From: Candidatus Enterousia sp.
Lineage (GTDB): Bacteria > Pseudomonadota > Alphaproteobacteria > Rs-D84
Length of the DNA stretch: 64,000 bases
Assembly (NCBI GenBank): GCA_045613925.1
Contig: JAZLBV010000009.1
Span: 26,554-90,553, forward strand
Direction of reading: 5' to 3'
Below are positions 5,915 to 49,429 of the stretch, piece after piece. Position 1 is the first letter of the stretch. Every line of letters starts with the position of its first letter. The position numbers were made by a program, and so were the translations under genes. Under the pieces are notes generated by a model that worked only from the letters and a program-made list of their open reading frames with translations, did no database searches and had not been told where the DNA came from.

Positions 5915-8596
5915 CTAGAAATTATATCTGAACTTCACACGACCAGATTGTGATGTGTAATCTTCACGTGCTTCGATATCATAATTCAAAGACAAATCTA
6001 ATCCACGATAATTCATTGTCAAACCGATGCCGAATTCACCAGCTATGCGGGACAAACGTTCACCGTTCAACGCATAGGCATTTACACCAGGCATTGTAAC
6101 AGTTGCAACTTGTTTGTCTGACAACATATCATATTTAACCGCGTAATTTAATTCTGGACGCAAAGTGAAACGTTTTGTTGCTTTGATATCAAATGCATAC
6201 TTTGTTCCAAGTGATGCCGTCAAATAATCCGCATCAGCCAATTCGTTTTTGATACCCAAAGAATTGATATAATCCGACGAATTGATATGCATATAACGCA
6301 ATCCCAATTCAGGTGTTATACCACCGACAAAATCATAACCTGTCGCGATATTTGCACCGAATGAATCAACATCATACTTTGCAGAAATGCCTGTACCCAA
6401 TGCGGCACCTGTTTCGGTATAATCAGCCATTGTATAATTTGCAACCAAATTCATATACCACGCGCTTGGCTTATATTGCCCATACACAAAGACAGAAGAC
6501 GAATCGATTTCTGTATCACGTGCAGTTCCACTTATATCAGAATGTGCAAACGCATACCCTGCACCGATTGTCCACACTTTGTCAAGTGTACCGTCCAAAC
6601 CAGCTGCAATTCCACGTGTATAACCGTTAAATGCATCACTATGCTTTGATTTGTTAAAGATACCCTGGGCCCAAACACCACCAGATGTCATCTTTACATC
6701 ACCACCATTACGACCAACCGTCGGCATAGACATACGTCCAGCAGCCAAAGACGTCACTGTGTTTTGAACAGAAGACGACACCGACTGCACAACCGATTGA
6801 GTTTCAGGATGAATAGCCGCCTGGGCATGTTCAACCTCTGCACGTTCCACATCTGTTCCAGATGCTAACTTTTCCTGGATAACAACAGCCAAATCGTTAA
6901 GTGTTTCAGATGTAGATGTCATCAAACCAGAAATCGCAGTTGCTGTTTCAGTACTAAGATTATTATCAGACGCAATATCTTCAACAGATTTTTGCGTAAC
7001 AACCAAGGTACCTTCGTTCCAATTTAAATCGTACACAGAACTGGACACATCAACATTGTCAAATATTTTCCCACCGAAAACTTTATACGTTCCAGCATCA
7101 GAAAATGACAATTTCAATTCACCATCACCATCAAACTTTGTAGTGGCAGTAATCTGAGCATCATCACCAGAACGTACTGTCGCCAACATAGTTCCATTCA
7201 AAGTGATCGTGTTAACATTAACATTGTTGGTACCAATGTTCATCGTTGCCCCAGAATCAACAGTCAACACACTACTTGCACTAACACCAGCAACATCGTT
7301 ATTAAATACACTTGTTCCAGATGTCAACGTCATTTCGCCAATATTCAACTTTCCGCCATTGAAAGTCGCATCTGCGATAGTTGCATTTTCAACGATAATT
7401 CCACGATCCATATCAGCAATATTCACAGTACCATTGTCAATATTCAAATTATTCAAAGCGATATAATATTTACCAGATGTAACATCTAAACCTGTTTCAT
7501 CATCAACGACCACAGTTTGCTCATTTGTAATCTTTGTCGCATTCCACACAGCACCATTAGACAAAGATAATCTAAAATTATTAACAGCCAACACGCTTTC
7601 TGCTGGTTCATCAGCATAATAATATTCCACAAGCGTATTTCCTGTCCAATAAGATTGAGCATCAGTTAAATTAATGTTAACATATGCATCTATCGGTGAA
7701 TTTGAATTTCCAGAGCTTCCAGGATTGGAATAAAAATTGAAATTCATATCACCATCCATTTTTACAGTATTTTTACCAGATTCATTAACATTAACAGTCG
7801 CATAACCACGTGCCAAAATTGCATTTTTAGCATTAACTGTTAAATTACCATCCAAATCAATCCAACCGTTACTCATTGCCTCAATACCAGTTTCAGTGGC
7901 AGTTAAATTAATATTTTTTGCCTTTATATCCACAAAACTTGTATCTTCTTTAGCTTTTGTTAAATCTGCCGTTCCAAACCCAGCGTGAATGGCAGAATCT
8001 TGAGCAGATATATTAACATCACCGGTTGCTTCCACCGTTATTTGACCTTTGCGATAATTAGCCATAAGACCTGTATCAACACCATCAACAGTTAAATTAT
8101 TCGCTTTAACACTTATGGATGCATTTTCATATGCGTGTATAGCATCACTAGCAGAAACATTTACATCATTGCTAGCAACAACATCTATAGCGCCTTGATA
8201 CGTATAAAGCCCACCATTGTTTCCAATAACCGTAATATCCCTACTTTTTAAATTTATATAACTTCCCGGTCCGGCTACAGCACCATATCCTCCTTCTTTG
8301 GTATCAGATAATTTTATAGTTTGGGTTGTATCTCCACCAAGAAAAACTTTGGAATCATCATACCACGCTTGTATAGCACGTACTTTTTCATTTTCGTTAA
8401 TATTAATATCAATATTGTCAACAGATAACGTACCTGTCTTTCCATAAATTGCATTTACCCGTTCTAGCAAAATCCCATCTGAAAAAGTTGAATTTAAATT
8501 GATATCGTCATCAATTTCAACCGCAACAGCAGGCATAACCAGCAACGCAGGCAAAACAGATATTCCAACTAAAAAACCGTGAAAATGCTTGTTCAT
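5915..8596 (-). CDS. Classical (type Va) autotransporter with a large repetitive passenger domain
   Basis: 893 aa. Signal peptide MNKHFHGFLVGISVLPALLVMPAVA. Asn/Gly/Thr/Val-rich passenger with beta-helix-like periodicity. C-terminal beta-barrel with alternating hydrophobic pattern, ending RVKFRYNF. Confidence 0.8.
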   Translation of the reverse strand: MNKHFHGFLVGISVLPALLVMPAVAVEIDDDINLNSTFSDGILLERVNAIYGKTGTLSVDNIDININENEKVRAIQAWYDDSKVFLGGDTTQTIKLSDTKEGGYGAVAGPGSYINLKSRDITVIGNNGGLYTYQGAIDVVASNDVNVSASDAIHAYENASISVKANNLTVDGVDTGLMANYRKGQITVEATGDVNISAQDSAIHAGFGTADLTKAKEDTSFVDIKAKNINLTATETGIEAMSNGWIDLDGNLTVNAKNAILARGYATVNVNESGKNTVKMDGDMNFNFYSNPGSSGNSNSPIDAYVNINLTDAQSYWTGNTLVEYYYADEPAESVLAVNNFRLSLSNGAVWNATKITNEQTVVVDDETGLDVTSGKYYIALNNLNIDNGTVNIADMDRGIIVENATIADATFNGGKLNIGEMTLTSGTSVFNNDVAGVSASSVLTVDSGATMNIGTNNVNVNTITLNGTMLATVRSGDDAQITATTKFDGDGELKLSFSDAGTYKVFGGKIFDNVDVSSSVYDLNWNEGTLVVTQKSVEDIASDNNLSTETATAISGLMTSTSETLNDLAVVIQEKLASGTDVERAEVEHAQAAIHPETQSVVQSVSSSVQNTVTSLAAGRMSMPTVGRNGGDVKMTSGGVWAQGIFNKSKHSDAFNGYTRGIAAGLDGTLDKVWTIGAGYAFAHSDISGTARDTEIDSSSVFVYGQYKPSAWYMNLVANYTMADYTETGAALGTGISAKYDVDSFGANIATGYDFVGGITPELGLRYMHINSSDYINSLGIKNELADADYLTASLGTKYAFDIKATKRFTLRPELNYAVKYDMLSDKQVATVTMPGVNAYALNGERLSRIAGEFGIGLTMNYRGLDLSLNYDIEAREDYTSQSGRVKFRYNF

Positions 8597-12942: not shown

Positions 12943-14937
12943 CTATCTTCCGAAACCAATAGTAAATTCATCACCAAAGTCGGCCACTTTCTGTCCGCCA
13001 ACCGTGCAATTCAACGCATCAAAGCCCTTTTCTACCTGTTTCTTTTTGATAATTTTTGCAGAAACTATACCACCAACAGTTCCCAAAATCACACCTGCGG
13101 TCGCATCAGACGCAAGGCGCGCAGTATTAAATTTACCATCGGCATTTTTCCAAACATTGGCATTAGATTTCGCATATTCAAAAAATCGATTTATATTGTC
13201 GGTTGCAGCCTTGACCTGGGCATCGGTTATAATATTACCCACCCCACCCGATTTTTCACAAAGCAATCCTGCGATTTCATTAAGATATTTTGCAACATTT
13301 GATTTATACAAATTACATTTTTCAGCAGACAGCGATACTGTGGCATTTTTATTAAATTTTGTACCATTTTTGCACTGTACAGATGCCCCCAGTTCAACCA
13401 CACAATCAATATTGTTATTTTTTGATTGTGGCGATGTTTTACCCCCAGTATCCACAACACAATTATGGGTTTCTTTATCCCATTTCCTACCAGTATCCAA
13501 ACATTTACATTCACCATTTTGCCAATTAGTATTTATATTTTCTTTAACCTTGCGCCAATTACACCACGCAAGTTGTTCATTATTTGTACATTCTTTTCCA
13601 TCTTTATGATTAAGTCTTGCAATATCAAAATATTTATATTCTCCTTCGCATAAAAAGCACAAATCTGTTTCTTCCACAAAAGAACCATCCTGTTTTTTAT
13701 TAAAAATCGCTACCGTATCATTATCGTGATAATCTCCAACATACACAGACATCGCCTGATTGTCCCCTTTTGGTGTTGAAGGATCTAATAACAAACAAGG
13801 TTCAATGACCATAAAGTCGGGGTGTAGCTTTTGCCACTCAATGACACGATTAGAATCATCATTATTATCAAAACACGTAAAAAATTCATAATCACAAGAT
13901 ATCCATTTGCCAGATGTTTTCTTATTGCATTTTACACCGCATTTTTCGTCCACTTTACCTGAACCAGTTTTAGAGTTTGATTTTTTATTACCCATATTTG
14001 TATTGGTTTTCCCGGCCCCAGTTTTACCGCCCTTGCCCGATTTTACACAATCGTGTTGTTCGGTATTCCATTCCATACCACTATCTTTACATTCACAATG
14101 ATTGTCATCAACCCATTCAACATTTTTACCGTCTTTATTCTTCCGCCATTTGCACCAGGCCTCACCCAAATTGTCACGACAATAGCCAGTTCCATCAGAA
14201 AATGGCTCACCTGCAGGACAACCCCAACAAAGATCATTTTCATTGACCATACCAGTAATCGCATTTGATTTATTGGTATAGGCTGGATAACCATCCTTTA
14301 AAACACCAACATACGTATATCCAGATGCCACATGTTCTGATGAAACATAATCACATTTTTGATCCACCCCATTAGAAATTTCCCACAACATAGACTGCAT
14401 TGAACAATAAAAAATCTTGTTATCACACAACAGCAACCTTCTTTCTCCACCAAAATCTGCTGATGTTGACAGCGTGCATTCCACACCACATTTTTCATCG
14501 AGTTTCACATAATGAACATTTGTGTAATAATCGCCATCCGATGCCTTTTTGCCATAAAGATACATTTCTTTTATTGGCTCACCCCTAATAAAATCTTGCC
14601 GATCATCCGATACTGGTATATCACTACTAGTAGCTTCCACCCACCTGTCATTTCCACCAAGTTTACATTTATAAATGGTGTCGTCTTTATTAACCGTTGT
14701 AAAACCTGCTGAATTAAACATATTACCAATATAATGGGTGCCATCCACATACACAATCTCACCGTCTTCACATTTACCCTTTTCGCATATCAATGCCATA
14801 CGGCTAACGTTTGGATCCTGGGGATACAAATCTTCATCACTGGGTGTTAGGTCGGTTGATTCAGTCAATTCGCACACTGCCCACGAATCGCCGACAAATC
14901 CACAGAACAAACAAATTATCATAAAGATTTTTTTCAT
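12943..14937 (-). CDS. Exported Cys-rich protein with an internal ~170-aa duplication and a C-terminal glycine-zipper hydrophobic segment (unknown family)
   Basis: Start moved to the ATG at 14937 (SD gagagggga). Signal peptide MKKIFMIICLFCGFVGDSWA. Two repeats begin DEKCGV(E/K)C and end AWC(K/N)WRK...C(E/K)C(K/L)D(S/T)G..W..E.H.CV, separated by a Gly/Lys/Thr-rich linker. C-terminal ATAGVILGTVGGIVSAKIIKKKQ. Confidence 0.7.
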   Translation of the reverse strand: MKKIFMIICLFCGFVGDSWAVCELTESTDLTPSDEDLYPQDPNVSRMALICEKGKCEDGEIVYVDGTHYIGNMFNSAGFTTVNKDDTIYKCKLGGNDRWVEATSSDIPVSDDRQDFIRGEPIKEMYLYGKKASDGDYYTNVHYVKLDEKCGVECTLSTSADFGGERRLLLCDNKIFYCSMQSMLWEISNGVDQKCDYVSSEHVASGYTYVGVLKDGYPAYTNKSNAITGMVNENDLCWGCPAGEPFSDGTGYCRDNLGEAWCKWRKNKDGKNVEWVDDNHCECKDSGMEWNTEQHDCVKSGKGGKTGAGKTNTNMGNKKSNSKTGSGKVDEKCGVKCNKKTSGKWISCDYEFFTCFDNNDDSNRVIEWQKLHPDFMVIEPCLLLDPSTPKGDNQAMSVYVGDYHDNDTVAIFNKKQDGSFVEETDLCFLCEGEYKYFDIARLNHKDGKECTNNEQLAWCNWRKVKENINTNWQNGECKCLDTGRKWDKETHNCVVDTGGKTSPQSKNNNIDCVVELGASVQCKNGTKFNKNATVSLSAEKCNLYKSNVAKYLNEIAGLLCEKSGGVGNIITDAQVKAATDNINRFFEYAKSNANVWKNADGKFNTARLASDATAGVILGTVGGIVSAKIIKKKQVEKGFDALNCTVGGQKVADFGDEFTIGFGR

Positions 14938-20404: not shown

Positions 20405-20557
20405 TTTAAAAATCCTAATATTTTTGAAAAAATTTTTAACTTTGAAAATATTACCGCTTTTGAGAAATTAAGGCAAGATTTATTATCAATAAAACTATTG
20501 ACAAACATATTATTTTGTATTATTTATTACACTAATAAGCATACAAAGGAAAACCTG

Positions 20558-21205
20558 ATGGCAAACGACATAAAAAACACAGTTATACAAAATAATATAT
20601 ACATAACAACAGCTATAAATAACGAAACTTGCAATAGTGTTATTATAAATTTAAGTCAATGGATTCAAGATTTACCATTCAAAGAAAAGAACCCATTAAC
20701 TTTTGCTCCTTTTACCGAATTGCCCGCAGGAACACCGATATTAAACGTGTACATTTCTTCGTATGGTGGCGATATGGATGTTGCAAAATCTATTCTGTCA
20801 TTATTAAACATTGCCAAAGCAAAAAATGTAATAGTAAAAACATATAATATATCAAATGCTCACAGTGGAGCCAGTATGATTGCAGTATCTGGAACTAAAG
20901 GATACAGATATATGGCACACAACGCATCAAATGGTATTCATTTCGGCAAACATACAGAAACAGTATCTCGTTTGCCTGAATTGCCACTGATGCTTGAAGA
21001 TATGAATCGTGTTAAACAACAAATGAAAGATATATATCTAGAAAATACAAAATTAACAAAAAAAGAATTAACAAAATTCTTCACAACCGAAGGTTCCGGC
21101 ACACTTAACGCCGTTCAATGTTTAACAAAAGGTATTTGCGACTATGTCATTACACCGAACGGTTGGACAAATAAACCAGAAGATTTAAAACAAATAACAC
21201 GTTAA
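20558..21205 (+). CDS. Divergent ClpP/S14-like serine protease homologue (orphan)
   Basis: Start at the ATG after aaagga. ISSYGGDMDVAKSILSLL resembles ClpP INSPGG...I.D.M, and GASMIAVSG resembles the Ser-nucleophile region. It is much more divergent than the canonical clpP at 34428..35009. Confidence 0.45.
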   Translation: MANDIKNTVIQNNIYITTAINNETCNSVIINLSQWIQDLPFKEKNPLTFAPFTELPAGTPILNVYISSYGGDMDVAKSILSLLNIAKAKNVIVKTYNISNAHSGASMIAVSGTKGYRYMAHNASNGIHFGKHTETVSRLPELPLMLEDMNRVKQQMKDIYLENTKLTKKELTKFFTTEGSGTLNAVQCLTKGICDYVITPNGWTNKPEDLKQITR

Positions 21206-25519: not shown

Positions 25520-25552
25520 AAAAAACCGCCATATTGACGGTTTTTACAATTA
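25520..25552 (-). terminator. Possible terminator after the Cys-rich tandem pair
   Basis: Short stem aaccg/cggtt with a 9-nt loop and an 8-nt A-run on the plus strand (a U-run on the transcript). Weak. Confidence 0.4.
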
Positions 25553-25560
25553 CGTTTATA

Positions 25561-28071
25561 TTACATTTTAATATCTTCACACACAGGATCTTTTGTATCC
25601 GCAGTGCACGACATATTTCTGTTATTATGGAACCAAGATACCGAACCTGTCGTCTTGCAAGAATTAGTTGTTATAACACGACAGATATGACATATTCTGG
25701 TTTCACGATCAAACGTAGATGTCACATCTTTCACCACAGTACCTAAATCAGATGCACCACTTCCACCCAAATACGCTTTGTTTTCAAATGTTCCTGCCGA
25801 AGACGTAGAAGTCCCCGCACCACCTTGAACCAAATCAGCAGTGGTCAGACCTGCACCAACTTCATAAGAAATCGAATACGGCGCAACTAACGGTGTCTGT
25901 TCATTGATAGAATTAGCCAAACTAACCCCTGTTTCGCCAGCCGCTATCTTATTACACATATATTGTGCAATATCAGTAGATGCGTTTTGTGTTGCTTCTG
26001 AAATCGCAGTATTTATCTTTTTGTTATAGTTATCCTGTGCTTTACGCAACGCAGCCATAGCAATCATCACACGATATTGATTCAACAACTTTGGTGTTCG
26101 TGCTTCTGTCATTTCTGTTTTATTTTTCTTAGTTTTTCCTTTGATTTGCGACAAATCACGTCCAGTAATACAATATTGAATCTTTTGATCCGATTCAATC
26201 AAAGATATTGTTCTGTTAATCGAACCAGCGATATTATTCAATTCATCTTCAATAGAAGTAATAATCGCATCGGCATCTTTGACACCTTTATTTTTCTTTT
26301 TAATTTGCGCGATATAATCTTGAACACCAATTTCACCAGGTGCCAAAACCTTATCACCATCTTTGACAGTTCCTGCGGCATCACCCATCTTTATATTACC
26401 AAACGAAATCATTCCAGTCACACGATACGTCGCACCGTCTTTCTGGGATTTAACTGACGACGTTCCGATATATTCATCAGTCGCAAAAGAATTACAATCG
26501 GTCGTAGAACCACACAATTCAACCATTTTTTCTTCTGCCAGATTCTGACAATTTTCAAGTGCTTTGTTATCTATGTTCAAATATAACCCCATCAACATAG
26601 AATCCAAATCAGACATTTTGAAATCAGGATTTGCCTGTTTGCAAACTACCAATTTATCAATTGGACAAATATCGTGAATATAATTGAAATCCATACCAAT
26701 ACAATTCATAAAATCTGGACCGCATCTGTCTTCGGATGTAAAGCAATCTTTGACTTCTTTGGTACACGCATCAACACGCATAGCCGCTAATTTACTTTTC
26801 ACATAATCCCAAATTTGTGGTTCCATACGTTCACACGGATCCAATTGAATCTTACAAAAAGACCGTGCCATCTCAGGCCGTGCCAAACACGCATCCATAG
26901 TTGCAACGCCCTTGCCTTCTATATCATCTTTACAAGCTGTTTGAATACACGCAGAAATATCACCCAAACAAGATTGACGTTTTTTTGATTCTACGTTTTG
27001 TTCAGCCAAACGAATAGTCGGCGCAGCTTCACGTAAAAAATCATCCCAAATATAATTACGCACCGCAACACAGCTGTCTAAAACCTTCTCACAAATGAAA
27101 CGTTTCGCCTCTAAGATTTCCATAGTAGATGCAGTAATATCATATACATTGATTGTTGCAACTTTCGTTCCAACAACACTTGTCGATGCATTGTTTTGCA
27201 TATTTTCAGATGCAATTGTGAACACACAATTACCCCAATCAGAACCGCACGCATCTTCGCTTTTCATACATTTTTTGTATTCAACCATACAGGTACCACG
27301 ATCGTATTTGTTGGATTCTTCTAAACTTTCCTTTAACGCTGCACGCACATCAGCATTCGCAGACGCATATATAGATTTTGCCTCAGACAACTTTTGTTGC
27401 ACACTATTCGCCAAACCTTTGCAATCAGAAACAATTTGACGAGAATACATCTGGGTCAACAAAGACAAATCTTTATCACAAGATTTATCTAATTGCTCTT
27501 TACACAATCTATGCGCAGCACTATACAAAGAACTTCCTGTTTTCGAAGCGATACCAGATAACAAATCTTCATCGTCTTCGTCATCATATTCTTCATCGTA
27601 ATCTTCATCATAAAGCGATGACCACATAGTAGATTTTATATCTTTTTTATTTTTCGTAGCGTTCGTCGCGATAACATTATTGGTTTCATCATATTCTCTG
27701 GTGCCTTGGAAAATAATGTCAGCATTTGCACCCGCCTGAACTTTTTCAACTTCTTCTGTGCGAATACGTTCCGCCTCTGACAACATATGTTGTATTTGTG
27801 TCAAAGCCGATTCATATTGCGCTATCTCATCGCTGCAATTGCACGATCCACCCATTTCATTATCAACGATACAAAATTGATCCATACAACTGTAATAAGA
27901 ATCATAACAATTCTGGTCGTAAATTCCCTTAGCATCCGTTCTGGCACGCACTTTGGTTCCCAAATTAATTGCAGCTTGTTTTTTTGTCGCTTTGGCTGCA
28001 AAAGAATCACCTGTTCCAACGAACACAGCTAACAATCCAACAACAAAACCAAAATTTAATATTTTTCTCAT
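25561..28071 (-). CDS. Large secreted Cys-rich protein, paralogue P1 of the CMDxFC family (unknown function)
   Basis: Start moved to the ATG at 28071 (SD ggaga). Signal peptide MRKILNFGFVVGLLAVFVGTGDSFA. Conserved block NCYDSYYSCMDQFCIVDNEMGGSCNCSD. Acidic patch DEDYDEEYDDEDDEDLL. Many spaced Cys. Homologous along its length to the 46286..49339 protein. Confidence 0.85.
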   Translation of the reverse strand: MRKILNFGFVVGLLAVFVGTGDSFAAKATKKQAAINLGTKVRARTDAKGIYDQNCYDSYYSCMDQFCIVDNEMGGSCNCSDEIAQYESALTQIQHMLSEAERIRTEEVEKVQAGANADIIFQGTREYDETNNVIATNATKNKKDIKSTMWSSLYDEDYDEEYDDEDDEDLLSGIASKTGSSLYSAAHRLCKEQLDKSCDKDLSLLTQMYSRQIVSDCKGLANSVQQKLSEAKSIYASANADVRAALKESLEESNKYDRGTCMVEYKKCMKSEDACGSDWGNCVFTIASENMQNNASTSVVGTKVATINVYDITASTMEILEAKRFICEKVLDSCVAVRNYIWDDFLREAAPTIRLAEQNVESKKRQSCLGDISACIQTACKDDIEGKGVATMDACLARPEMARSFCKIQLDPCERMEPQIWDYVKSKLAAMRVDACTKEVKDCFTSEDRCGPDFMNCIGMDFNYIHDICPIDKLVVCKQANPDFKMSDLDSMLMGLYLNIDNKALENCQNLAEEKMVELCGSTTDCNSFATDEYIGTSSVKSQKDGATYRVTGMISFGNIKMGDAAGTVKDGDKVLAPGEIGVQDYIAQIKKKNKGVKDADAIITSIEDELNNIAGSINRTISLIESDQKIQYCITGRDLSQIKGKTKKNKTEMTEARTPKLLNQYRVMIAMAALRKAQDNYNKKINTAISEATQNASTDIAQYMCNKIAAGETGVSLANSINEQTPLVAPYSISYEVGAGLTTADLVQGGAGTSTSSAGTFENKAYLGGSGASDLGTVVKDVTSTFDRETRICHICRVITTNSCKTTGSVSWFHNNRNMSCTADTKDPVCEDIKM

Positions 28072-28085
28072 TTTTTTCTCCACTA

Positions 28086-30281
28086 TTACATATTTATATC
28101 TTCACAGGATTCAATTTCCTGACAGAATTCTTCTTTGCCACCAGACATATAACCCAACACACCGGCCCCCACAGCACCAACAACACCACCAATTGCAGTA
28201 CCCCAACCAGCGCTCAACATAGTGCCTGTAGATGCCCCCGCAGACAATCCACCTGCTGCAGATTTCAACGCAGACGACGCCTTAGATTCACCCCCGGTTT
28301 CGCAAACTTGTTGAATGCGACAAACGTGGCAATTACGCAAATCCGATTCGAATGATACAGTATGTATATAACTGTAATTGCTCTTGGAATCTTTCGGTGT
28401 TTCCGGTTTATAAGTATTCAAACACGTTTTCCGTGCAGTTTCGACGTCTTTTTGACGAGTTAATTCTGCAATCTTAGAATCTAATTCACGCAAATTACGA
28501 TTTTCAGCAGACATCTTTGCCAACAATTTCGCAGTATTAAACACACTTATACCCATCGATTGCTTTCCTTTGACCTTTTTCGCTGGAACACTTTGAGAAT
28601 CCGAACACGCAGCCACAGTTTTTTCCTGTTCAAACTGTTTAAAGAATTCTTCAACCGACGCATCGGAATTTGCGATAACTGTATTACGCAAATCAGATAA
28701 ACCTTCGGCTGTATCTGGCAATTCAACCAAAGATTCAACCGCAGCATCAATCGGCAAACACGCCATATCTGTACCACAAACTTTTGACAGCTGTGTATCA
28801 AAATAATTTATACAACCCTGCAGCATCTGATAATCCATCTGTAATAACACAGATTGCACAATTACATCATACTGCTTTGCACCTTTGCACGATGGGAACA
28901 TATCTTGCGGACAAAGCGATGCAATTTCATAAGGTTTTTTCCCGACACATTCTGCCTTGGTAAAATCGACACCACATTTATCTTGTAAACATTTATCAAC
29001 ATCGTTTTCACAGAATTTTGTCTGTAAATATTTCAGTTTATCATTAACAACCACTTGCAAGCCTGGGATTTTCGCATCACATTCTGTGATAACAGGACAA
29101 ATTCCCGCTGCAACATTGACATCAACCAAACATTCAGAATTCGCCGATGTTGAACAACCTTCTTCCAAACAATCCTGAATCCGTGCTAAACAAGTTTGGC
29201 GTTCATATTTATCAGCATACTTTTCTGCTTCCTTTAAAACACTTTTAGATTCTGCCGCCCAATCTTGTTTAACATATTCACTTACCGCCATACACTGATC
29301 CAAAATATTTTCACACGCATTAGAACGACGCGCCAGTAATTTTGCATCTAAACAATTTTCAAAATTTACACCACAACCACCCTTGTCAGAAATGCAAGAA
29401 CGATACGCCAACAAACATTCACCACGGTTGTATTTGTTCGTAGTATCTAACATCTCTAAACGCGCCTTGCGCACAGCAGATTCAGCAATACGCTTATTAG
29501 ATTCTGCATTTGCTTTCTGATCTTTTAAATACGCATCATAACTTTTGCAATCTTGCGCAATCATACGCGTATAAAGTATGGTTTCCATTTCCGCCTTAGA
29601 TGCACAAGATTCCAACTCAGACGCGCAATATTTCGCCGCCATTTTATATAAATCATCACCCAATGTAACGTCTTCGCCAACATCTACATCTTCATCATCA
29701 TAATCTTCTTCATCAGCACCCAGCCACGACATAAAATCAGCAACTGAAACCTTGGTATTATTTGTATTTTCAGCAAACACCAACCGCGCCTTAGCACCCA
29801 GTTGTTCACGTTCAACACCTTCGGTAAATAATTTGTCTGCTTCTTCTTGAATTTTTAACACAGCCTGTATCTTGCTTCGCGCCAAATCTATGTTATCAGA
29901 ACACGCACAACGTTCACCCTGGCTTTCATCTAACAAACAAAATTGATCCATACAATCACGATATGCATCCCGACAATCCCCGGATTTTTCAGCAACAACT
30001 TCTTCCTTTGGCGTTTCAGCAACAGGTTCCACAACAGACTCTTCAACAACCACCGATTCTGCCGGCTTTGATTCAGTCGTACTGACCGCCTGGGTTGTGA
30101 TTGCTTTTATACCAGATACAGCCTTAACATCCGCAGCCGTTACCACGGGCATACGCGTTCCGCCAGTACTGGGTCGACCAAACCCAATACGCGCAGCATC
30201 CCCACGCGACGTAGCCCCAAATGCAGACATCGATACCGAAAACACACTAAACAGTGCCACAAAAATATTAAATTTTTTCAT
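28086..30281 (-). CDS. Large secreted Cys-rich protein, paralogue P2 of the CMDxFC family, with a C-terminal glycine-zipper segment
   Basis: Signal peptide MKKFNIFVALFSVFSVSMSAFG. Conserved block DCRDAYRDCMDQFCLLDESQGERCACSD. NKYNRGEC block. C-terminal GWGTAIGGVVGAVGAGVLGYMSGG and terminal CEDINM. Lies 14 nt upstream of P1. Confidence 0.85.
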   Translation of the reverse strand: MKKFNIFVALFSVFSVSMSAFGATSRGDAARIGFGRPSTGGTRMPVVTAADVKAVSGIKAITTQAVSTTESKPAESVVVEESVVEPVAETPKEEVVAEKSGDCRDAYRDCMDQFCLLDESQGERCACSDNIDLARSKIQAVLKIQEEADKLFTEGVEREQLGAKARLVFAENTNNTKVSVADFMSWLGADEEDYDDEDVDVGEDVTLGDDLYKMAAKYCASELESCASKAEMETILYTRMIAQDCKSYDAYLKDQKANAESNKRIAESAVRKARLEMLDTTNKYNRGECLLAYRSCISDKGGCGVNFENCLDAKLLARRSNACENILDQCMAVSEYVKQDWAAESKSVLKEAEKYADKYERQTCLARIQDCLEEGCSTSANSECLVDVNVAAGICPVITECDAKIPGLQVVVNDKLKYLQTKFCENDVDKCLQDKCGVDFTKAECVGKKPYEIASLCPQDMFPSCKGAKQYDVIVQSVLLQMDYQMLQGCINYFDTQLSKVCGTDMACLPIDAAVESLVELPDTAEGLSDLRNTVIANSDASVEEFFKQFEQEKTVAACSDSQSVPAKKVKGKQSMGISVFNTAKLLAKMSAENRNLRELDSKIAELTRQKDVETARKTCLNTYKPETPKDSKSNYSYIHTVSFESDLRNCHVCRIQQVCETGGESKASSALKSAAGGLSAGASTGTMLSAGWGTAIGGVVGAVGAGVLGYMSGGKEEFCQEIESCEDINM

Positions 30282-30413
30282 AATGATACATTCCTACATT
30301 ATGTGATGATTTTATCAAAAAACCATTTGTATTGCAAGCGAATAAAAACTTCTTGCAATTTAAACCAATGATTAATATCATAGGAAAAACTTAAACAAAC
30401 AGGATTTTGACAT

Positions 30414-30665
30414 ATGGCAAAAGATGATGTAATTGTTTTTTCTGGGACCGTCGAAGAAAGATTACCAAACACTATGTTTCGTGTTCGTTTGGAAAACGGT
30501 CATATGATATTGGCAACAATGTGTGGCAAAATGCGCAAAGCACGTATTTGGGTCAATACCGGTGAAAAGGTTCATGTTGAAATGACACCGTACGATTTGG
30601 ACAAGGGTCGAATAACATTTGTTGAACGCACGCACGCAACAAACGAAAACCAATCTCAGAATTAA
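30414..30665 (+). CDS. infA: Translation initiation factor IF-1
   Basis: [69 protein letters not shown] is typical IF-1, with a short extra C-terminal tail. Confidence 0.95.
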
Positions 30666-30695
30666 AAAAACCACATAATGTGGTTTTTTATTTTT
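30665..30695 (+). terminator. Rho-independent terminator after infA
   Basis: Stem aaccac/gtggtt, 5-nt loop, followed by a T-run. Confidence 0.7.
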
Positions 30696-30766
30696 GTTTT
30701 TTTGTAAAATACCCTTGCCTAAAATATCGTATTTTTGATATTATTATTTAGAAGTAAAGAAAAGGG

Positions 30767-33094
30767 ATGAGAAAAATACTATCGATTTTTCTGGGTCTAT
30801 GTTTTTGCATTGGCATTGCCAACGGTGCAACGCGTACCCAAAACGCCCTTACCCGAACAGACACAAATAATACATCCACGCGACAATCTGCGAACATACA
30901 AAAAACAAACTCTTCACGTGCACTAACAACACGCGCCGCAACAAACACGACAAATAACACACAAAAAAGAACTACTGCACGCAATACGGCAAAAAAAAGT
31001 GTATCTTCACGCACTGCAACAAACGCGCGCAACAATGTAATCTCGCGGACGGCGATACGACCAAATCGAATTTCGCGCGCAACATCAACATCTGGAACCA
31101 AAACAAAAACTTTTGGTGATAATTATAACGCGTGCAGAGACACATACTTTACGTGTATGGATTTATTCTGTGCAAACCAAAATGACCAATACAGAAGATG
31201 TGTATGTTCTTCACGATTAACAGAAATTCAAAACCAGGAAAAATCTTTGTCTCAAACATCCGATAGTTTGAAAGATTTTCATAATCTGAATATCGAAGTT
31301 ATTGATAAAACAGCAGCAGAGGTAAAATCTATGGTTTCTGCATCTGATGGCGAAAAGGCGATGAAAAAGAAAGGGAAATCCGACGGAACCGGAACATTGG
31401 CAAACATATCAGATGTTTTGAAAACAACAAAACAAAAATCTTTATCAACAGGTGGCACTTTGGACATCGCCGGCGATATAAAATCAATATGGTCCACCAC
31501 TGATTTGATTGGTGGTTCTGATATTGCAAATTTAACAGGCGAATCCTTGTATAATGCAGTTCACGCACAATGTTCTGAAATAGCCGCCCAAAATTGCAGC
31601 GCCAGTGATTTAAAAATGATAATTTCTGCATACGGAATGTACATAGAAAACGATTGTTCATTGCTTGCAAACAATCTTGATAAAAAAACAACAGAAGCAA
31701 ACGCGGCCATACGCACAACCAGACACCAGATGCAAGATGCCAGATTAGAAAATTATGACGCGCATAATTCGCTTACTCTTAACGACTGTATTGCCCGTGT
31801 CCGCCAGGATTTAACCGCGTCAACGGCGTGCGGCGAAGGCTATGTCCACTGTCTTGATTTTACTGGCAAATATATTAATTCAACAACTGGCGAACCAATA
31901 TATTCACCTGATTTTTATCAAATAGAAAATCAGTTATCTTTGTCTGGGGATATTTTAAAAAATACAAAAAATACATCATTTGTAAAAATGTTAGATAAAA
32001 AACGCATTTATGCAAAGAATTCTTTGGATTTATGCACTGATGATGCAGATTATGTATGGAACGAATTTTTACGCCAGGCTGTCGTTGAAATTTATCAGGC
32101 ACAACAACAAGCTGTTCAAAAAGTAAAATCAGACTGTCTTGGTGTGGTAAATCAATGTTATTTGAAACAATCTGATACATTAAAAGAATTTTCAGATAAT
32201 TCATATCAAATATTATTGGGCCAGGCATTAGAATTATCCGAAGAATTATGTTCTGAAAAATTGTCTACTTGCAGCAATCTATACGGCGGTGGTCCCGAAG
32301 GATTGGCATTATTAGTCAACACGCTTGCAGGAATCACAGATAAAGCAATTGCGCAAACTTGTCCAGATTTATTAACGAAATTTGCACAAAAAATCTGTGC
32401 GGTACCTGCAAATGATTCTAATCATATGTATCCTTATGGCTGTCGTGTTTATGCACCTGGTGAATCAAGATACGCCCGCGTTGACGTGTGTAATACAACA
32501 TTGGTAAATCCTTTTTCAAAATCTGATATTTTAAGCACAAAAACAAGTGATATCTATAACACTTACTATACTTGTCCGAATGCAAACATCAGATACAAAA
32601 GCTGTGAATTTAATTATTATTTATATAACAGACCGAACGAATCCACAGAATGCAACGATACAAACAATTGGTGTTATAACGAAAACTTTGCAACAGAATG
32701 TCGTATATGTCCATCCGGTTATCTTTGCACAGGTGAAACTGCAGAACCAAAAAATCTTGATAAAAACTTATACGATTCTTGCGGACTTTACTACATAGGC
32801 AGTTTATATCAACAAATGGTTATATATGCATTGCAAAATTGCACGCGTCCGTCAAATGATGATACCGTATTACCAGAATCAATATTGGCCGACGTTGATA
32901 TAGTGATGAAACAGGTTCAATCATCACTTATATCCGGATTAGCAGCTGAATGCGACAAACAAAATGGTATATGGGTTGAATTGCCCTGGACGGACGAGAA
33001 TATGGATGGGTATCACGACATAACTGGGGATGTATTGTTAAAAGAATTCTATACATCAACTGGAACAAATAAACTTTGGGGATATTGTAAATAA
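30767..33094 (+). CDS. Large secreted Cys-rich protein, paralogue P3 of the CMDxFC family
   Basis: Signal peptide MRKILSIFLGLCFCIGIANG. About 100 aa of basic Thr/Ala/Arg/Asn low-complexity sequence. Conserved block ACRDTYFTCMDLFCANQNDQYRRCVCSS. Cys-rich remainder, including ECRICPSGYLC. Confidence 0.85.
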   Translation: MRKILSIFLGLCFCIGIANGATRTQNALTRTDTNNTSTRQSANIQKTNSSRALTTRAATNTTNNTQKRTTARNTAKKSVSSRTATNARNNVISRTAIRPNRISRATSTSGTKTKTFGDNYNACRDTYFTCMDLFCANQNDQYRRCVCSSRLTEIQNQEKSLSQTSDSLKDFHNLNIEVIDKTAAEVKSMVSASDGEKAMKKKGKSDGTGTLANISDVLKTTKQKSLSTGGTLDIAGDIKSIWSTTDLIGGSDIANLTGESLYNAVHAQCSEIAAQNCSASDLKMIISAYGMYIENDCSLLANNLDKKTTEANAAIRTTRHQMQDARLENYDAHNSLTLNDCIARVRQDLTASTACGEGYVHCLDFTGKYINSTTGEPIYSPDFYQIENQLSLSGDILKNTKNTSFVKMLDKKRIYAKNSLDLCTDDADYVWNEFLRQAVVEIYQAQQQAVQKVKSDCLGVVNQCYLKQSDTLKEFSDNSYQILLGQALELSEELCSEKLSTCSNLYGGGPEGLALLVNTLAGITDKAIAQTCPDLLTKFAQKICAVPANDSNHMYPYGCRVYAPGESRYARVDVCNTTLVNPFSKSDILSTKTSDIYNTYYTCPNANIRYKSCEFNYYLYNRPNESTECNDTNNWCYNENFATECRICPSGYLCTGETAEPKNLDKNLYDSCGLYYIGSLYQQMVIYALQNCTRPSNDDTVLPESILADVDIVMKQVQSSLISGLAAECDKQNGIWVELPWTDENMDGYHDITGDVLLKEFYTSTGTNKLWGYCK

Positions 33095-33145: not shown

Positions 33146-34408
33146 CTAAGCGGCTTTTTTATTTTCAGTAAATATTTCCACAGGTGCCTTTTTGCCGTTA
33201 ACAACATCTGCATCTATGACAATCTCTTGCAAACCTTTTTTATCAGGTGCTTCAAACATCGGCTGTAATAAAATCTTTTCCAATATAGAACGCAACCCAC
33301 GCGCACCGGTTTTACGTTCAACAGCCATTTTTGCAATCGCATTCAAACCGTCTTTGGTTATGTTCAATTTAATTCCGTCCATTTCCAACATGGCCGTATA
33401 TTGTTTAACTATTGCATTCTTTGGTTCAGTTAAAATTTTTACCAACGCTTTTTCGTCCAACGCTTCCAAAGTAGTAATTATTGGCAAACGACCAATTAAT
33501 TCTGGAATAATTCCAAAGCGCACCAAATCAGATGACTGCACATCGGCCAGATGATTTTGTTCTTCACGCATTTTTTTGTCTGAAACATTTGCACCAAAAC
33601 CAATCCCTGCACGCGCGCAATTACGTGCACCAATAATTTTATTCAAACCATCAAATGCACCACCACAGATAAACAAAATCTTGCTTGTATCTAATTGTAC
33701 AGTGGTTTCACCTGGATGTTTTCTTCCACCACCACCCGCAGGAACATTTGCAACAGTACCTTCTATCAACTTCAACAAAGCCTGTTGTACACCTTCGCCA
33801 GAAACATCACGTGTCAGCGACGGATTTTCAGATTTTCTTGAAATCTTATCAATTTCATCAATGTAAATAATTCCACGTTGCGCACGTTCCACATCAAAAT
33901 TGGCGTTTTGCAACAAACGCGTTAACACAGATTCTACATCGTCCCCCACATAGCCCGCTTCGGTTAAAGTGGTGGCATCAGCAATCGCAAAAGGTACATC
34001 TAATACCCGCGCCAAGGTTTGGGCGAACAAAGTCTTACCAGTTCCAGTTGGACCAATCATCAAAATATTTGATTTTTGAATTTCAACATTAGATGCAAGT
34101 GATGCGCTGTTTCTTTTATAATGATTATACACAGCCACTGCCAAAGTTCTTTTTGCTTCATCCTGTCCAATAACATATTCATTTAAAAATTTATAAATCT
34201 GGGACGGTGTCGGCAAAGACTCAGCATCACGATTTATCTGTGTTTTTTTGTCATCAGCCATAATATCATTACACAAATTTATGCATTCATCACAAATGCA
34301 AACATTACGACCACTGACTAATTTTTTAACTTCATATACAGACTTACCACAAAAACTGCAAAACTGCTGAGCATTTTCCTGTGTGTTCTGTGTTTTTTCA
34401 TCACTCAT
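33146..34408 (-). CDS. clpX: ATP-dependent Clp protease ATP-binding subunit ClpX
   Basis: N-terminal zinc-binding CSFCGK...CICDECI, Walker A GPTGTGKT, and typical ClpX sequence throughout. Confidence 0.97.
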
Positions 34409-34427
34409 TTTTAAACCCCAGAATCTT

Positions 34428-35009
34428 TTATTTGCGTGTTAAAATTCCATCAATCAGACCAAATTTCTTAGCTTCTTCTGCCTGCATCCAATTATCGCGT
34501 TCCATTGCATCAAAAACTTCTTTTTCTTTGCGACCTGTAAATTCCATCATCTGTTTTATCATTGCTTTTTTGGTATATTGAACCTCTTTCAAATAAATTT
34601 CCATATCAGTCACTTTACCTTCTGTTCCAGACGATGGCTGATGAATCATAATCTGAGCATTTGGCAAAACAAAACGTTTACCCTTTTCCCCAGCAGCCAA
34701 CAACACAGCCGCCATAGATGCAACCAACCCAATACCAATTGTAGAAACATTTGGTTTAATATATTGCATAGTGTCCATAATCGCCCACCCGGCACTAACA
34801 TCACCACCCGGAGAATTTATATATAACGAAATGTCAGCATTTGGATTTTCAGATTCCAAAAACAGCAACTGCGCAACAATTGTATTCGCCATATTGGTTT
34901 CTATAGGCCCAGAAACCATAACAATTCTGTCCCGCAAAAGGCGCGAATAAATATCAAATGAACGCTCACCCTTTGGTGATTCTTCAATAACAATAGGTAC
35001 CAACGACAT
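34428..35009 (-). CDS. clpP: ATP-dependent Clp protease proteolytic subunit ClpP
   Basis: Start moved to the ATG at 35009 ([10 protein letters not shown]...). [36 protein letters not shown] motifs. Confidence 0.95.
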
Positions 35010-35143
35010 AATAAAATCCTTTTTATAATATTGAATCATACCATAAAACAAGCCGATTCGCCAATTTTATAGTATAAAAATAAGGAAATTTTCCATTTTT
35101 GCAAGTGTGGCGATCAAAAATCCCCATTTGAACAAAACTCAGA

Positions 35144-45017: not shown

Positions 45018-45122
45018 AGTATTTCCCTCAATTTCTCTTTGACAAATTATACCATACAAAAGACCCAAAAAAAAGCATTTTTTAACAAACAATCAACCAA
45101 AGTTTTATTTTTAACAACTTAT

Positions 45123-45157: not shown

Positions 45158-46162
45158 ATGACGAAGTTATCAAATTTCTTAAAAACTAACAAAATATTGC
45201 TGCGATGGACAGTATGGTATTTTGTATGTTTATGGGCAATTCTGCGATTTGTATTTGATTTCAATATGCTTTCAAAAAATTGCTGGGTAAAATTTTTTAA
45301 TGAAACCCTGCACGGATTCTGGGGATTAGTGTTCGTAGTCATTATTTATGGTGCAATTTTAATATATGTTGCATCAGCAATGATAATATATCGAAAAAAC
45401 AAACCGATAATGGAAATCCCTGTCCCAGACAGCATAAAAAAAATCCCATCAAACATATCAAAAATATTTTCAGAAACAAAAACAGATACAAAATCTGACG
45501 AAAATAAAAAAACAGAAAATAATTCAGACATTAACGATGACGGATATCCACGTAATTTACCACCCGAATTGTATGTTCCATATATGCGCGCAAAAAACCA
45601 TATGACTGCAAATACCGCCATATCTGATTTCAACAAACAACCAGATGAAAACGCAACGCCTGCCCCAGAACCCCAACAAGCACAACCAGAAACCGAATCG
45701 TTTCCAATACCAACTGATTTTGACATCTCAGATGATTTGACCGACACAACACAATCACAACAAAACAATTCGGTTCCTGTATTCAAAGATTTAGATTTTG
45801 ATACACCCATAGAACAAACCAAACAAGACACTGCACAAGACAATAATAAAAACACAGTCATAAAATATTGCGAAAAAAATGGTCTGGAATATGAAATCCT
45901 GGACGATTTTGTAATGATGAAAAAATATTTGATTTACGACCACAACGACGAAGATTTCTGGATAATGGACGACGACAACTGGTTCGCATCAGGCAAACAG
46001 AAAAAATCCCCAGTTAATAGATTAATAGATTTATCCGAACAATACACCGTATCCCCAGTTATATATTTCGAAACGAAAAACATTTTGGACATAGAACACG
46101 TAATCACAGGACTTGAAAAACACGGCATTCGTGTGATTATGGATTTATCTGAATTACCATAG
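45158..46162 (+). CDS. Hypothetical membrane protein (two N-terminal TM segments, acidic disordered linker, C-terminal globular domain)
   Basis: 334-aa ORF. Hydrophobic segments WTVWYFVCLWAILRFVF and FWGLVFVVIIYGAILIYVASAMII. No family recognised. Confidence 0.5.
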   Translation: MTKLSNFLKTNKILLRWTVWYFVCLWAILRFVFDFNMLSKNCWVKFFNETLHGFWGLVFVVIIYGAILIYVASAMIIYRKNKPIMEIPVPDSIKKIPSNISKIFSETKTDTKSDENKKTENNSDINDDGYPRNLPPELYVPYMRAKNHMTANTAISDFNKQPDENATPAPEPQQAQPETESFPIPTDFDISDDLTDTTQSQQNNSVPVFKDLDFDTPIEQTKQDTAQDNNKNTVIKYCEKNGLEYEILDDFVMMKKYLIYDHNDEDFWIMDDDNWFASGKQKKSPVNRLIDLSEQYTVSPVIYFETKNILDIEHVITGLEKHGIRVIMDLSELP

Positions 46163-46285: not shown

Positions 46286-49200
46286 TCAAGACGCCCCCCC
46301 ACCAGAACCACCATTATTATCAGAACAATTAAATACATCTGAATTTGGTGAATTCCATTCCTTCATCTGATATTTTTCGTATGTAACCTTTGTGTGTTCG
46401 TCATCATCACTAGAATACCATTTTACACACTTGTCTCTACGATTACGCGATCCTGCGGTTCTTTCACACGCATAAGTCCAAACCTTAACAGTACAAACAT
46501 TCGTTTCCGGATCATAGGAGGGTCTTCTTTTTTCTGTTTGTAACCCAGCATTAGGAATACTCCTGTTACTTTCATCTTCTCCATAAGCGCTGCAACCGGT
46601 GGCTCTAGAGCAGAAATTCGGCTCTTGATAATACTTTTCATTATTTTTATCTGTACATTCTTCCTGATTTGATTCATCCTGTACCTGTTTCATTTGCGAC
46701 ACCAAATCTGCATCAGCCATAAGTGCTGCGTATTCTTCTGCAGTCAACGCACAGATTTCTTTGTTTGCAATCTTCAAAGCCAATTCTTGCGCCAAAATTT
46801 TTTGACGACGTTCTCTAATTGCATCATACATTTCATCACGTTTACCAGACTCCAAATAAGCAGTCAGGGAAGTATTATAATCAGATAAAATAGAATTCAT
46901 CAACTGATTACCAACTGAAACGTGCAAACTGTCCATCAAATTTTGGAACCGACGTGTATCTCTAGAACCTGTCCCCTCTGCGTAGTTCTTAGAATAAGTG
47001 GTACCATTATTTTCCCCTTTTTCACCACGTTGTTCACTAGTTGAAATCATCTGGAAAGTTTTACCATTGATACAAGCATCAACCGTTGGATCTGATTCCG
47101 CCTGGGATACAGTATTACCAAAATCACGATTCATACTGTCAATAATCATATTCAAAAATTCGTTATTATTATCTGTGTACCCATCAGCAACCTTACGTAT
47201 CGGGTCTTTATCAACAACATAAAAATATTTACCGGACTCAGTAGAATTTGCACCCTCCCCTGCTTTACCCGACTTATCAAAACCAAGCAGTGATAAATCC
47301 ATTTTCCCAGTTAAACGTGGTTCAATAACATTACGTTTAATTCTATCATCTGTAATTTTGCTAGAAAACAAATCATCATAACACTCTGCCTTTCCTTTTC
47401 TACAATACTGCCATTTGAAAGCATTTTTGATTTCATTGCTAGATAAAACCAATCCTGGACAAGCCTGAGAATTTTCATCGTCATCACTAGAGACGCCACA
47501 AACACGTTCCATCGCAGCATTAGCGGCGTTTTGACAAGTTTGCGCAAAAGTATTATCAATATTCAACGCTAAACCTTGCGCCACACGTGCGATATAATCA
47601 CGAACACCATCTGTCTTAAACTTTTCCTGACACGCAATAAGCTTTTCTTCTGCACACAAATCAACAATCGTATCAGTATCCAAACCTATACACGCAGAAT
47701 AATCTTCACCGCATCTGTCTTCAGAAGTTAAACATTCTTTAACTTCCAAAGTACATTTATCGACACGAATAGCCGCCAATTTTGCCTTTACATAATTCCA
47801 AACTTTGTCTTGCACAGAAACAGTATCGCCAACGCCACCACAACGTGCCAATTCAAGCTTACAAGACGCCGCGACCAAATCTGGATCAGACAAACACGCG
47901 TCATAATTGTCTGAATTTTCATCCCATTGTGAACCGCAAACCTTTTGCACACAAGACACAGCCGTGCTGATACAATTCATACGACTATTTGACGCCGCAG
48001 AATATTCCGCAGTATAAACCGCCGGCACAATTTCTTTCAACACAGTTTTCCAAACTGCATCATTTTTATTCGCGTTAACACATTGTTTGGTAACGTGCTG
48101 ACACATTTCCTTCTTGCTGCCGTTCAAAATATCATACGTCGCAGAACTGATAGTTATAGTAGTAACACCTGTTTTAACCGCAGTTGTCGGAATTGTGCCA
48201 CTTTTAGAACCCTTGCCACTGCCATACAAAGCCTGCAAAATTGCAGTATCTGCAATACAGCCCGAAAAATCACTGCCACATTCTGCGGTCGTTTGCAAAC
48301 ACTGTTTGAATTGGATTGTGCATTGACCTAAATCATATTTATTTTCATTTTCATACATTTCCAACGCCGCATCACGCAAAGCCTTTTGCGCAGTCTGCAA
48401 TTTTTGCTGGCTGGAATTACGTTGCTGTTTCAAACTGTTTTCATACGCAGAACAATCAGAACGAACCTTTTGCGCATATGTCAATTGCAATATACCCGCC
48501 GAAGGCGAACATTTTTCAGACAACTGTCTTGTGCACAATTTTGCCGCCGCGTTGTGCAAATCGTCGCCTTTTTTGTCTGCAAATTTTGTTTCCATAGTCG
48601 TCAAAGAATCACCGAATATGTCATCATCTTCTTCGTCATCACTGAACAAATTTGTATTCCACGCAGACAAATCCAAAGTTCTGCTTTTCTTGGTTGTTTG
48701 TTTAGATGATTCCAAAGTTTCCTTAGCCACCTTGTCAGCCGCCGCCTTGGCACGCGACATAATAACATCGGCATTATCACCCATCTGGATACGTTCGACA
48801 CCTTCGGTCGCCAAAGCATAACTTTGTTCATCCAATTTCAAAATTTCTTCCAAAACAACATCTAATTCTGCATTTCTGTCGCTGCATTGGCAACGCCCAC
48901 CCGACGCGTTATCCAGCATACAAAACGCATCCATACATCCATAATACGCATCTTGACATTCCTGGTCTACCAAAGTATTTTCCTTGGCAACTTCAACCTT
49001 GGTCCCTGTTTGAATAACCTTTTTCGTAGTTCCCGCACGCGCCGCAACAACATTGTTTTGCTTTGTGGCCGCACGCGCCGTTGTCGACGCAGGTTTTGCC
49101 GTCGTCCGTGTTGCAGAACGCGCAGACGACACCGCCGCATTATTCGCATTTTTAATCGCGTTTCGCGCCGTAGCAGCACGCGCCGCCACAGTTGGTGCAG

Positions 49201-49339: not shown

Positions 49340-49429
49340 AAAATACTCCTTACCTTTCTTGGTAATTTTATCACAAAACCGCACCCCGCGCAAGACGTAT
49401 TTATAAAAAAGCATAAAAAACAATAACAA

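Follow-up and report, generated by a model that had tools for sequence, protein, structure and literature searches.

A 64,000-nucleotide stretch of contig JAZLBV010000009.1 from Candidatus Enterousia sp. (hereafter the window) encodes four large, exported, cysteine-rich proteins, here called P1 to P4, and our analysis showed that they are paralogues from a protein family and fold not described before, one that is specific to uncultured Alphaproteobacteria (Ca. Enterousia, order Rs-D84). The way in which their cysteines are conserved and lost indicates that these residues form structural intramolecular disulfides and are not metal sites. As for function, we favour the reading that P1-P4 are rigid disulfide-stapled helical envelope scaffolds, mainly periplasmic, with P2 anchored by a glycine zipper; this reading is tentative, at somewhat short of an even chance.

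A paralogous family kept at fixed sites

As judged by BLASTP, P1 matched P4 (E 3e-89), P2 (3e-47) and P3 (6e-25), and P2 matched P3 (9e-10), so that the four proteins are confirmed from their sequences as true paralogues, with P3 the most divergent. When the window was searched with a hidden Markov model (HMM) of the family, P1, P2, P3 and P4 were matched and nothing else. Cysteine makes up 4.0-4.9% of these proteins, compared with 0.92% in 38 other open reading frames (ORFs) of the window (binomial p ≤1e-12). A first-pass annotation, made by reading the letters of this DNA, had already proposed the paralogy and had estimated that about 15 kb of the window encodes exported Cys-rich proteins; the seven such ORFs sum to 15,021 nt, or 23.5% of the window. 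It had also placed P2 and P1 in tandem 14 nt apart with infA between P2 and P3, and these ORF coordinates, the gap and the position of infA were all found as described (Table 1).

The same annotation could not name the family, and neither could we, as no curated model, solved structure or fold was matched. Searches of P1-P4 and of the other Cys-rich ORFs against Pfam-A 2025, NCBIfam 20.0, PADLOC 2.0 and PHROGs v4 gave nothing usable, the best E values for P1-P4 being ≥0.05 and their scores far under the cut-offs, and no fused domain was present in 45 long or divergent family members that were scanned. Family profiles built from 4 and from 150 sequences found no match among PDB sequences at E up to 10. 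Foldseek searches with the predicted P1 and P2 structures (mean predicted local distance difference test score, pLDDT, about 70) gave best E values of 0.55 and 0.87 against PDB, with a probability of at most 0.07, and the P2 model reached 0.25 against BFVD; the generic long-helix matches in these lists (vinculin, the alpha-actinin rod, phage internal virion and tape-measure proteins) were rejected, their E values being non-significant. A viral or mobile origin was also rejected, because no relatives were found on viral contigs in IMG/VR and the GC content is native, the cluster lying at 0.37-0.40 like the remainder of the window, which leaves it with no island signature. The literature searched on Enterousia, Rs-D84 and cysteine-rich proteins yielded no description of the P1-P4 proteins. 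The family offers a new fold class for structural work.

Ca. Enterousia, whose genomes measure about 0.9 Mb, is known from gut and rumen and is uncultured. It is placed in the order Rs-D84 and reported to have genomes of 0.75-1.0 Mb and no tricarboxylic acid cycle, respiratory chains or standard transporters, from which a dependence on partner organisms has been deduced (PMC12306168), in agreement with a second report (PMC13196213). A scan for relatives, with one genome per GTDB species, gave at least 575 confirmed relatives, and the genome counts of 80 used below refer to the best 80 loci among them. All of these came from uncultured metagenome-assembled genomes (MAGs) named Candidatus Enterousia, Alphaproteobacteria or 'Rickettsiales' bacterium. 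Rumen and the gut of horse, chicken, pig and human (Hadza) are among their sources, one MAG carries the label Zod_Metabat, and one entry is a circular chromosome of 958,618 bp. The family comprises at least 1,312 clusters at 90% identity (E ≤1e-3) and 945 clusters at 50% identity, 468 of the latter below 1e-30. Its named members are all annotated as 'hypothetical protein', and the divergent ones likewise derive from Alphaproteobacteria MAGs. Rs-D84 and Ca. Enterousia are widespread, uncultured, partner-dependent gut and rumen bacteria. The family supplies a specific marker and antigen set with which to visualise and enrich these organisms.

The order P3-infA-P2-P1 was kept in 80/80 species genomes, each locus carrying exactly the expected family members, which bears out the earlier view that these genes sit among core genes and not on an island. 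In the closer clade, a BOF OB-fold protein and a porin-like outer-membrane protein follow this arrangement, and clpX-clpP lies on the opposite side. Full-length orthologues were present in 80 genomes for P1, 79 for P2 and 63 for P3, with near-constant Cys counts. Median identity to the window proteins was 60% for P1, 61% for P2 and 48% for P3, against 88% for ClpX, corresponding to divergence relative to ClpX of 2.5-fold, 2.5-fold and 3.6-fold; P1 and P2 orthologues showed 57-88% identity over 100% coverage. P1, P2 and P3 are ancient single-copy orthologue groups. A check for decay found the family genes intact in relatives except for one P3 orthologue (locus L072, 2466-5271, minus strand), which is split into two overlapping ORFs by a frameshift or an assembly error and is the sole disrupted family gene in the 80 genomes.

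P4 behaves differently. In rumen contigs it always lies 3' of rplQ, in the order secY-rpsM-[Ephrin_rec_like Cys-rich gene]-rpoA-rplQ-P4-(membrane protein, opposite strand)-C671-ccrM, where C671 is a further Cys-rich exported protein. Its identity ranges over 36-90% while that of RpoA is 89-97%, so P4 is much faster-evolving, and its C-terminal third is variable. Three rumen metagenome contigs (L093, L106 and L111) carry one or two extra family genes in tandem after P4, which marks the site 3' of rplQ as the place where the family expands in some lineages. The first-pass description of a lineage-specific, expanded protein system therefore stands in its first part, since the best 80 loci and all named members belong to Alphaproteobacteria, Enterousia or Rs-D84, but the expansion has to be narrowed to extra copies at the P4 locus in some genomes. 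Overall, about 1% of the genome (10.1 kb) is given to four large paralogues kept at fixed sites beside infA and rplQ in at least 80 species. Reduced genomes shed nearly all non-essential genes and yet keep this family, suggesting that it is central to the build of the cell or to attachment to a partner.

Cysteine pairing and protein architecture

The alignment covered 210 diverse members and showed 79-100% conservation at 29 core Cys columns, and the columns of the CxDxYxxCMDxFC block were Cys in 96-98% of members. Where cysteines were missing, they were missing in pairs: columns 380 and 395 in 7 sequences, 443 and 469 in 5, and 368 and 413 in 5, with the pairs (520,526) and (477,508) also lost together. 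The P3 clade is without exactly six core cysteines (268, 327, 380, 395, 436 and 450), which make three pairs. All 80 P1 orthologues had an even Cys count in the mature protein, as did 77 of 79 for P2 and 97 of 113 representatives; as the orthologues are not independent, nominal p-values for this parity overstate its significance. The dominant spacing is C-x6-C, located on predicted helices, and since 368-413 and 268-327 are among the co-lost positions, we infer nested 'twin C-x6-C' antiparallel hairpins at columns 368, 375/406, 413 and 261, 268/327, 334.

The paired loss, the even parity, the lack of CxxC/His patterns and the Sec export argue against metal or cofactor binding and for folding in an oxidising extracytoplasmic compartment, with apparently about 18 internal disulfide bonds per protein. 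At that number, P1-P4 would rank among the most disulfide-dense bacterial helical proteins known. The first-pass annotation had raised the possibility of a disulfide-cross-linked envelope layer; its disulfides are upheld by the paired loss and the parity, but cross-linking between molecules is not; the evidence points to intramolecular stapling.

Sec-type signal-peptide features were found in P1-P4 and in 215/222 orthologues (80/80 for P1, 75/79 for P2 and 60/63 for P3), using rule-based criteria: a basic n-region, a hydrophobic h-region, small residues at -3/-1, no lipobox and no twin-Arg. These results agree with the signal peptides read in the first pass, as does the start of P1, P3 and P4 with MRKIL, and neither a lipobox nor a twin-Arg motif was found in the orthologues that passed the rule-based check. 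The signal peptide is followed by a disordered linker, net-basic in 68/74 representatives. In P1 it is short and basic and carries a GTxV motif (80/80 orthologues), in P2 it contains R[VI][GS]xxR (67/79 orthologues), and in P3 it is long, basic and rich in S/T/R/N.

Next comes a helical core of about 480 residues (P1 amino acids 53-530), which opens with CxDxYxxCMDxFC-x9-CxCS; the three blocks of this type quoted earlier for P1, P2 and P3 translate exactly at their positions in Table 1. The acidic patches, the NKYxRGxC..CGxxxxNC block, the CH(I/V)CR motif and the terminal CEDI(K/N)M are likewise present as first described. In the layout common to all four proteins, the core gives way to a disordered acidic loop and a variable C-terminal part. 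After the core, P1 has a mixed region and then a C-terminal 4-strand sheet ending in CEDIKM. P2 has the same core, and here a C-terminal beta hairpin and the last strand clamp a glycine-zipper loop, conserved in P2 orthologues, which may insert into a membrane as a hairpin. In many family members, 1-3 glycine-zipper-like segments lie near the C-terminus. AlphaFold returned models dominated by long helices (58, 48 and 35 residues), with pLDDT 70.6 for P1 and 69.0 for P2 (80-92 in the core) and predicted template modelling scores (pTM) of 0.41-0.43. Comparison by hhalign showed that the core motif C-x6-C-x6-CGxDFxxC (22-25 residues) occurs twice; a large or regular internal repeat was rejected, as hhalign supports just this motif.

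The near-invariant CED(I/V)xM terminus was considered as a sorting signal and set aside. In the AlphaFold models of P1 and P2 it makes the final strand of the small C-terminal sheet, and it was therefore read as structural, though it might still serve as a PDZ or BAM signal.

Possible roles in the envelope

On the scaffold reading, P1-P4 would be exported through Sec, lose their signal peptides and, in a compartment that is extracytoplasmic and oxidising, fold into elongated bundles of alpha-helices. Nested intramolecular disulfides, arranged as 'twin C-x6-C' ladders of about 18 bonds per protein, would lock the helical hairpins, and the resulting protease-resistant rigid rods would act as structural envelope components that stay mainly in the periplasm. 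The C-terminal glycine-zipper hairpin, clamped at both ends by the small disulfide-bonded beta sheet, would tie P2-type members to a membrane, and P1 would be the soluble partner of the co-transcribed P2. A more peripheral place would fall to the faster-evolving P3 and P4, and the basic N-terminal linkers and acidic loops could make electrostatic or strand-docking contacts within such an assembly.

This reading draws support from several results. No beta-barrel or translocator domain was found in P1-P4, and the window encodes two proteins that are recognisably translocated across the outer membrane, an autotransporter and a YadA-type adhesin, each with 0 Cys; both findings were counted for periplasmic retention. 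Proteins with many disulfide bonds are not known to pass through type 5 or type 1 secretion. The constraint on P1 and P2 and the candidate membrane hairpin of P2 also speak for it, as do the export features, the paired Cys loss, the predicted helices and the fixed gene order.

Other results weigh against the scaffold reading. Both AlphaFold models are of moderate confidence (pLDDT 69-71, pTM 0.41-0.43), and the P2 glycine-zipper loop has a pLDDT below 50. The mature Cys count of P3 is odd in 54/63 orthologues, which leaves room for an intermolecular bond. The fast evolution of P4 and its tandem duplication in some genomes are more like those of a surface-exposed protein. The 64-kb window contains no gene for Dsb, VKOR or type 2 secretion, and the lineage is reported to be without respiratory chains (PMC12306168), so that the way in which such an anaerobe would oxidise its exported proteins, at about 18 disulfides each, becomes a question in its own right.

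The strongest rival, which we consider possible though on balance unlikely, is that the proteins form a surface-exposed coat or act as adhesins, making a protease-resistant Cys-rich layer in contact with a partner organism or the animal host. They would reach the surface by folded transfer across the outer membrane, for example through a type 2-like system, or by release. Partner dependence without standard transporters (PMC12306168; PMC13196213) would fit such a layer, as would the fast evolution of P4, P3, C671 and the Ephrin_rec_like protein, the extra tandem copies in L093, L106 and L111, and the autotransporter and YadA-type adhesin encoded in the window; disulfide stapling would suit a protease-rich gut. 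However, no outer-membrane targeting or translocation domain was found and no secretion-system gene is linked to the cluster, and P1 and P2 are conserved in full length at the identities given above, unlike typical variable surface antigens. The RGD of the window P2 was rejected as a conserved adhesion motif, since it occurs in just 19/79 orthologues.

A bolder form of the scaffold idea, which we regard as improbable, is that the four paralogues build a hetero-polymeric disulfide-stapled helical exoskeleton in or on the Rs-D84 envelope, replacing classical tethers and relying on an undescribed quinone-independent pathway of oxidative folding in an anaerobe that has no respiratory chain. For its assembly, N-terminal strand-like motifs (P1 'AIQxGTxVR', P2 'ARVGVxR') would dock onto the C-terminal beta sheet of a neighbouring subunit.

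It is more doubtful still that P1-P4 are secreted soluble effectors, toxins or bacteriocin-like proteins directed against competitors or host cells. Their signal peptides, the variable C-terminal third of P4 and weak glycine-zipper and class II bacteriocin-like matches in the P2 tail (E 0.4) could be taken that way, but none of the 45 diverse members contained a domain of a toxin, an enzyme or an immunity protein, neither PADLOC nor PHROGs returned a match, and no immunity-like gene was seen adjacent. The genes also behave as single-copy core genes with fixed synteny beside infA and rplQ, and no viral or mobile copies were found.

We give even less weight to the idea that the cysteines bind metals or redox cofactors (Fe-S, Zn or haem) for periplasmic electron transfer or metal storage, in spite of the high Cys content, the anaerobic organism and the one CxxC (CHICR/CHVCR) in P1 and P2. 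Cysteine loss follows defined pairs, and in the mature protein P1, P2 and most representatives have an even number; C-x6-C on helices dominates, not CxxC or CxxCH, and the second Cys column of the CxxC is Cys in only 38% of members. Export is by Sec and not Tat (no twin-Arg), and no cofactor-binding family was matched. That the ORFs are decaying, non-functional or annotation artefacts, as the split P3 orthologue of L072 might hint, we practically discount, given intact orthologues with near-constant Cys counts in 80 (P1), 79 (P2) and 63 (P3) genomes, strong sequence conservation and 945 clusters at 50% identity.

Among known systems, the chlamydial OmcB/OmcA proteins had been offered in the first pass as an analogy, and an analogy is what the likeness stays. 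Like P1-P4, they are Sec-exported, disulfide-bonded envelope proteins with at least a few percent Cys, made by a reduced-genome, host-dependent diderm, and both are proposed to stiffen the envelope. There is, however, no sequence or fold relation and no Chlam_OMP6/DUF11-type Pfam match. OmcA is a small lipoprotein and OmcB is rich in beta structure, with disulfides that mostly link different molecules and change with development, whereas P1-P4 are predicted to be helical, have no lipobox and show evidence for intramolecular pairs.

Mitochondrial twin-CX9C/CHCH hairpins share with the hairpins inferred for P1-P4 the antiparallel helices and two nested disulfides (outer C1-C4, inner C2-C3). In P1-P4, by contrast, the spacing is C-x6-C and not C-x9-C, many hairpins would be concatenated in 700-1000 amino acids, the compartment is bacterial and extracytoplasmic, and no CHCH Pfam match was found. 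Helicobacter Hcp (Sel1-like) proteins are also exported alpha-helical proteins with disulfide-bridged helix pairs from a gut-associated bacterium, but P1-P4 showed no Sel1 (PF08238) at E up to 1, no TPR and no regular repeat of about 36 residues, and they are much larger, with a distinct C-terminal beta domain.

The P2 tail GWGTAIGGVVGAVGAGVLGY resembles the glycine-zipper outer-membrane lipoproteins (SlyB/Pcp, the Rickettsia 17-kDa antigen, YMGG) in its GxxxG-type zipper and in length and composition; its scores against Gly-zipper_YMGG and YiaD_Gzip_OmpA were 10.8 and 12.5 bits, against cut-offs of 28.9 and 175. Unlike them, P2 is not a lipoprotein, and its zipper is a loop clamped in a disulfide-bonded sheet that ends a 650-residue helical protein. 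Giardia VSP and trypanosome VSG are functional analogues only: they are exported and either disulfide-stabilised (VSP) or built as long helical bundles (VSG), abundant, resistant to host proteases and members of paralogous families. They differ from P1-P4 in being eukaryotic, anchored by a transmembrane segment or glycosylphosphatidylinositol, present in extreme copy number and subject to antigenic switching, whereas P1 and P2 are conserved single-copy genes, and no Pfam or Foldseek similarity was found.

Gene features and neighbouring genes

The coordinates of the family genes and of the features in and around them are listed in Table 1. A GGAG ribosome-binding site lies 7 nt 5' of the P1 ATG at 28071, which makes the GTG at 28083 unlikely as the P1 start and favours the MRKIL start. 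P2 lies upstream and ends at 28086, 14 nt before this ATG, and the two genes are probably co-transcribed, with the hairpin 3' of P1 likely marking the end of their transcription unit. infA has a terminator of its own. The promoter-like sites of P2, P3, P4 and C671, all consensus matches only, have in common a TTGC -35 element, a spacer of 17-18 nt and TGnTAnAAT about 25 nt before the start codon, a similar layout that suggests common strong sigma-70-type expression.

Table 1. Positions in the window of the P1-P4 genes and associated features
Feature	Position	Strand	Description
P1	25561..28071	-	836 amino acids, 36 Cys
P2	28086..30281	-	731 amino acids, 36 Cys
P3	30767..33094	+	775 amino acids, 33 Cys (31 in mature protein)
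P4	46286..49339	-	1017 amino acids, 41 Cys; directly 3' of rplQ
infA	30414-30665	+	between P2 and P3
P1 block CxDxYxxCMDxFC...CxCS	27829..27909	-	CYDSYYSCMDQFCIVDNEMGGSCNCSD; coordinates start at first Cys
P2 block CxDxYxxCMDxFC...CxCS	29895..29975	-	translation
P3 block CxDxYxxCMDxFC...CxCS	31133..31213	+	translation
P4 block CxDxYxxCMDxFC...CxCS	48878..48958	-	CQDAYYGCMDAFCMLDNASGGRCQCSD
P1 acidic D/E/Y patch	27566..27612	-	12/24-nt tandem repeat; predicted disordered
P2 glycine-zipper hydrophobic loop	28134..28271	-	amino acids 671-716, GWGTAIGGVVGAVGAGVLGY; candidate membrane-inserting hairpin
Intrinsic-terminator-like hairpin	25521..25545	-	directly 3' of P1
P2 extended -10 promoter-like site	30309..30337	-	TTGCAA, 17-nt spacer, TAAAAT, TG upstream; consensus match only
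P3 extended -10 promoter-like site	30715..30744	+	consensus match only
P4 promoter-like site	about 49365-49395		consensus match only
C671 promoter-like site	about 45040-45070		consensus match only

Several further genes of the window encode exported Cys-rich proteins. C671 (43077..45017, minus strand) has a Pro/Asp/Glu linker, C-x6-C motifs and two glycine-zipper segments, and its N-terminal 'RGR..SARMP' motif resembles the N-terminus of P2, RMP being common to both. Compared with the family, it gave E 0.35 in hmmsearch, and hhalign aligned 41 columns over C-x6-C..VR..VWxDF (probability 11%, E 0.0027), so that it may be a very distant relative. It adjoins TM334, a 334-amino-acid protein of no known family with two transmembrane segments (45158-46162, plus strand), and the synteny P4-TM334-C671-ccrM extends across rumen contigs.

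The Ephrin_rec_like gene (51404-52399, minus strand) encodes an exported protein of 331 amino acids, 31 of them Cys (9.4%), which contains four Ephrin_rec_like repeats of eukaryotic type (PF07699, E 2.7e-15). The gene lies inside the ribosomal alpha operon, between rpsM/rpsK and rpoA, and its position is kept in rumen contigs, where the sequence is only 26-65% identical. Another exported Cys-rich protein (12943-14937, minus strand; 664 amino acids, 35 Cys) has an internal repeat of about 190 residues (CWGCP...CKWRKN and CFLCE...CNWRKV) and, in its C-terminal part, a segment that resembles a glycine zipper or a transmembrane helix; it had no Pfam or NCBIfam match and was unrelated to P1-P4 by BLASTP or HMM.

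At 3462-5006 (minus strand), 5258-5857 (plus strand) and 5915-8596 (minus strand), a YadA-anchor trimeric autotransporter and a classical autotransporter, with 0 Cys each, flank a small ORF whose N-terminus MAIIGYIRVSSTKQ looks by eye like a serine recombinase or invertase, and the adhesin region here may be one that inverts or moves. Besides the canonical clpP-clpX at 33146-35051, the window has another ClpP-like gene, which is diverged (20498-21205, plus strand; PF00574, E 4.5e-15).

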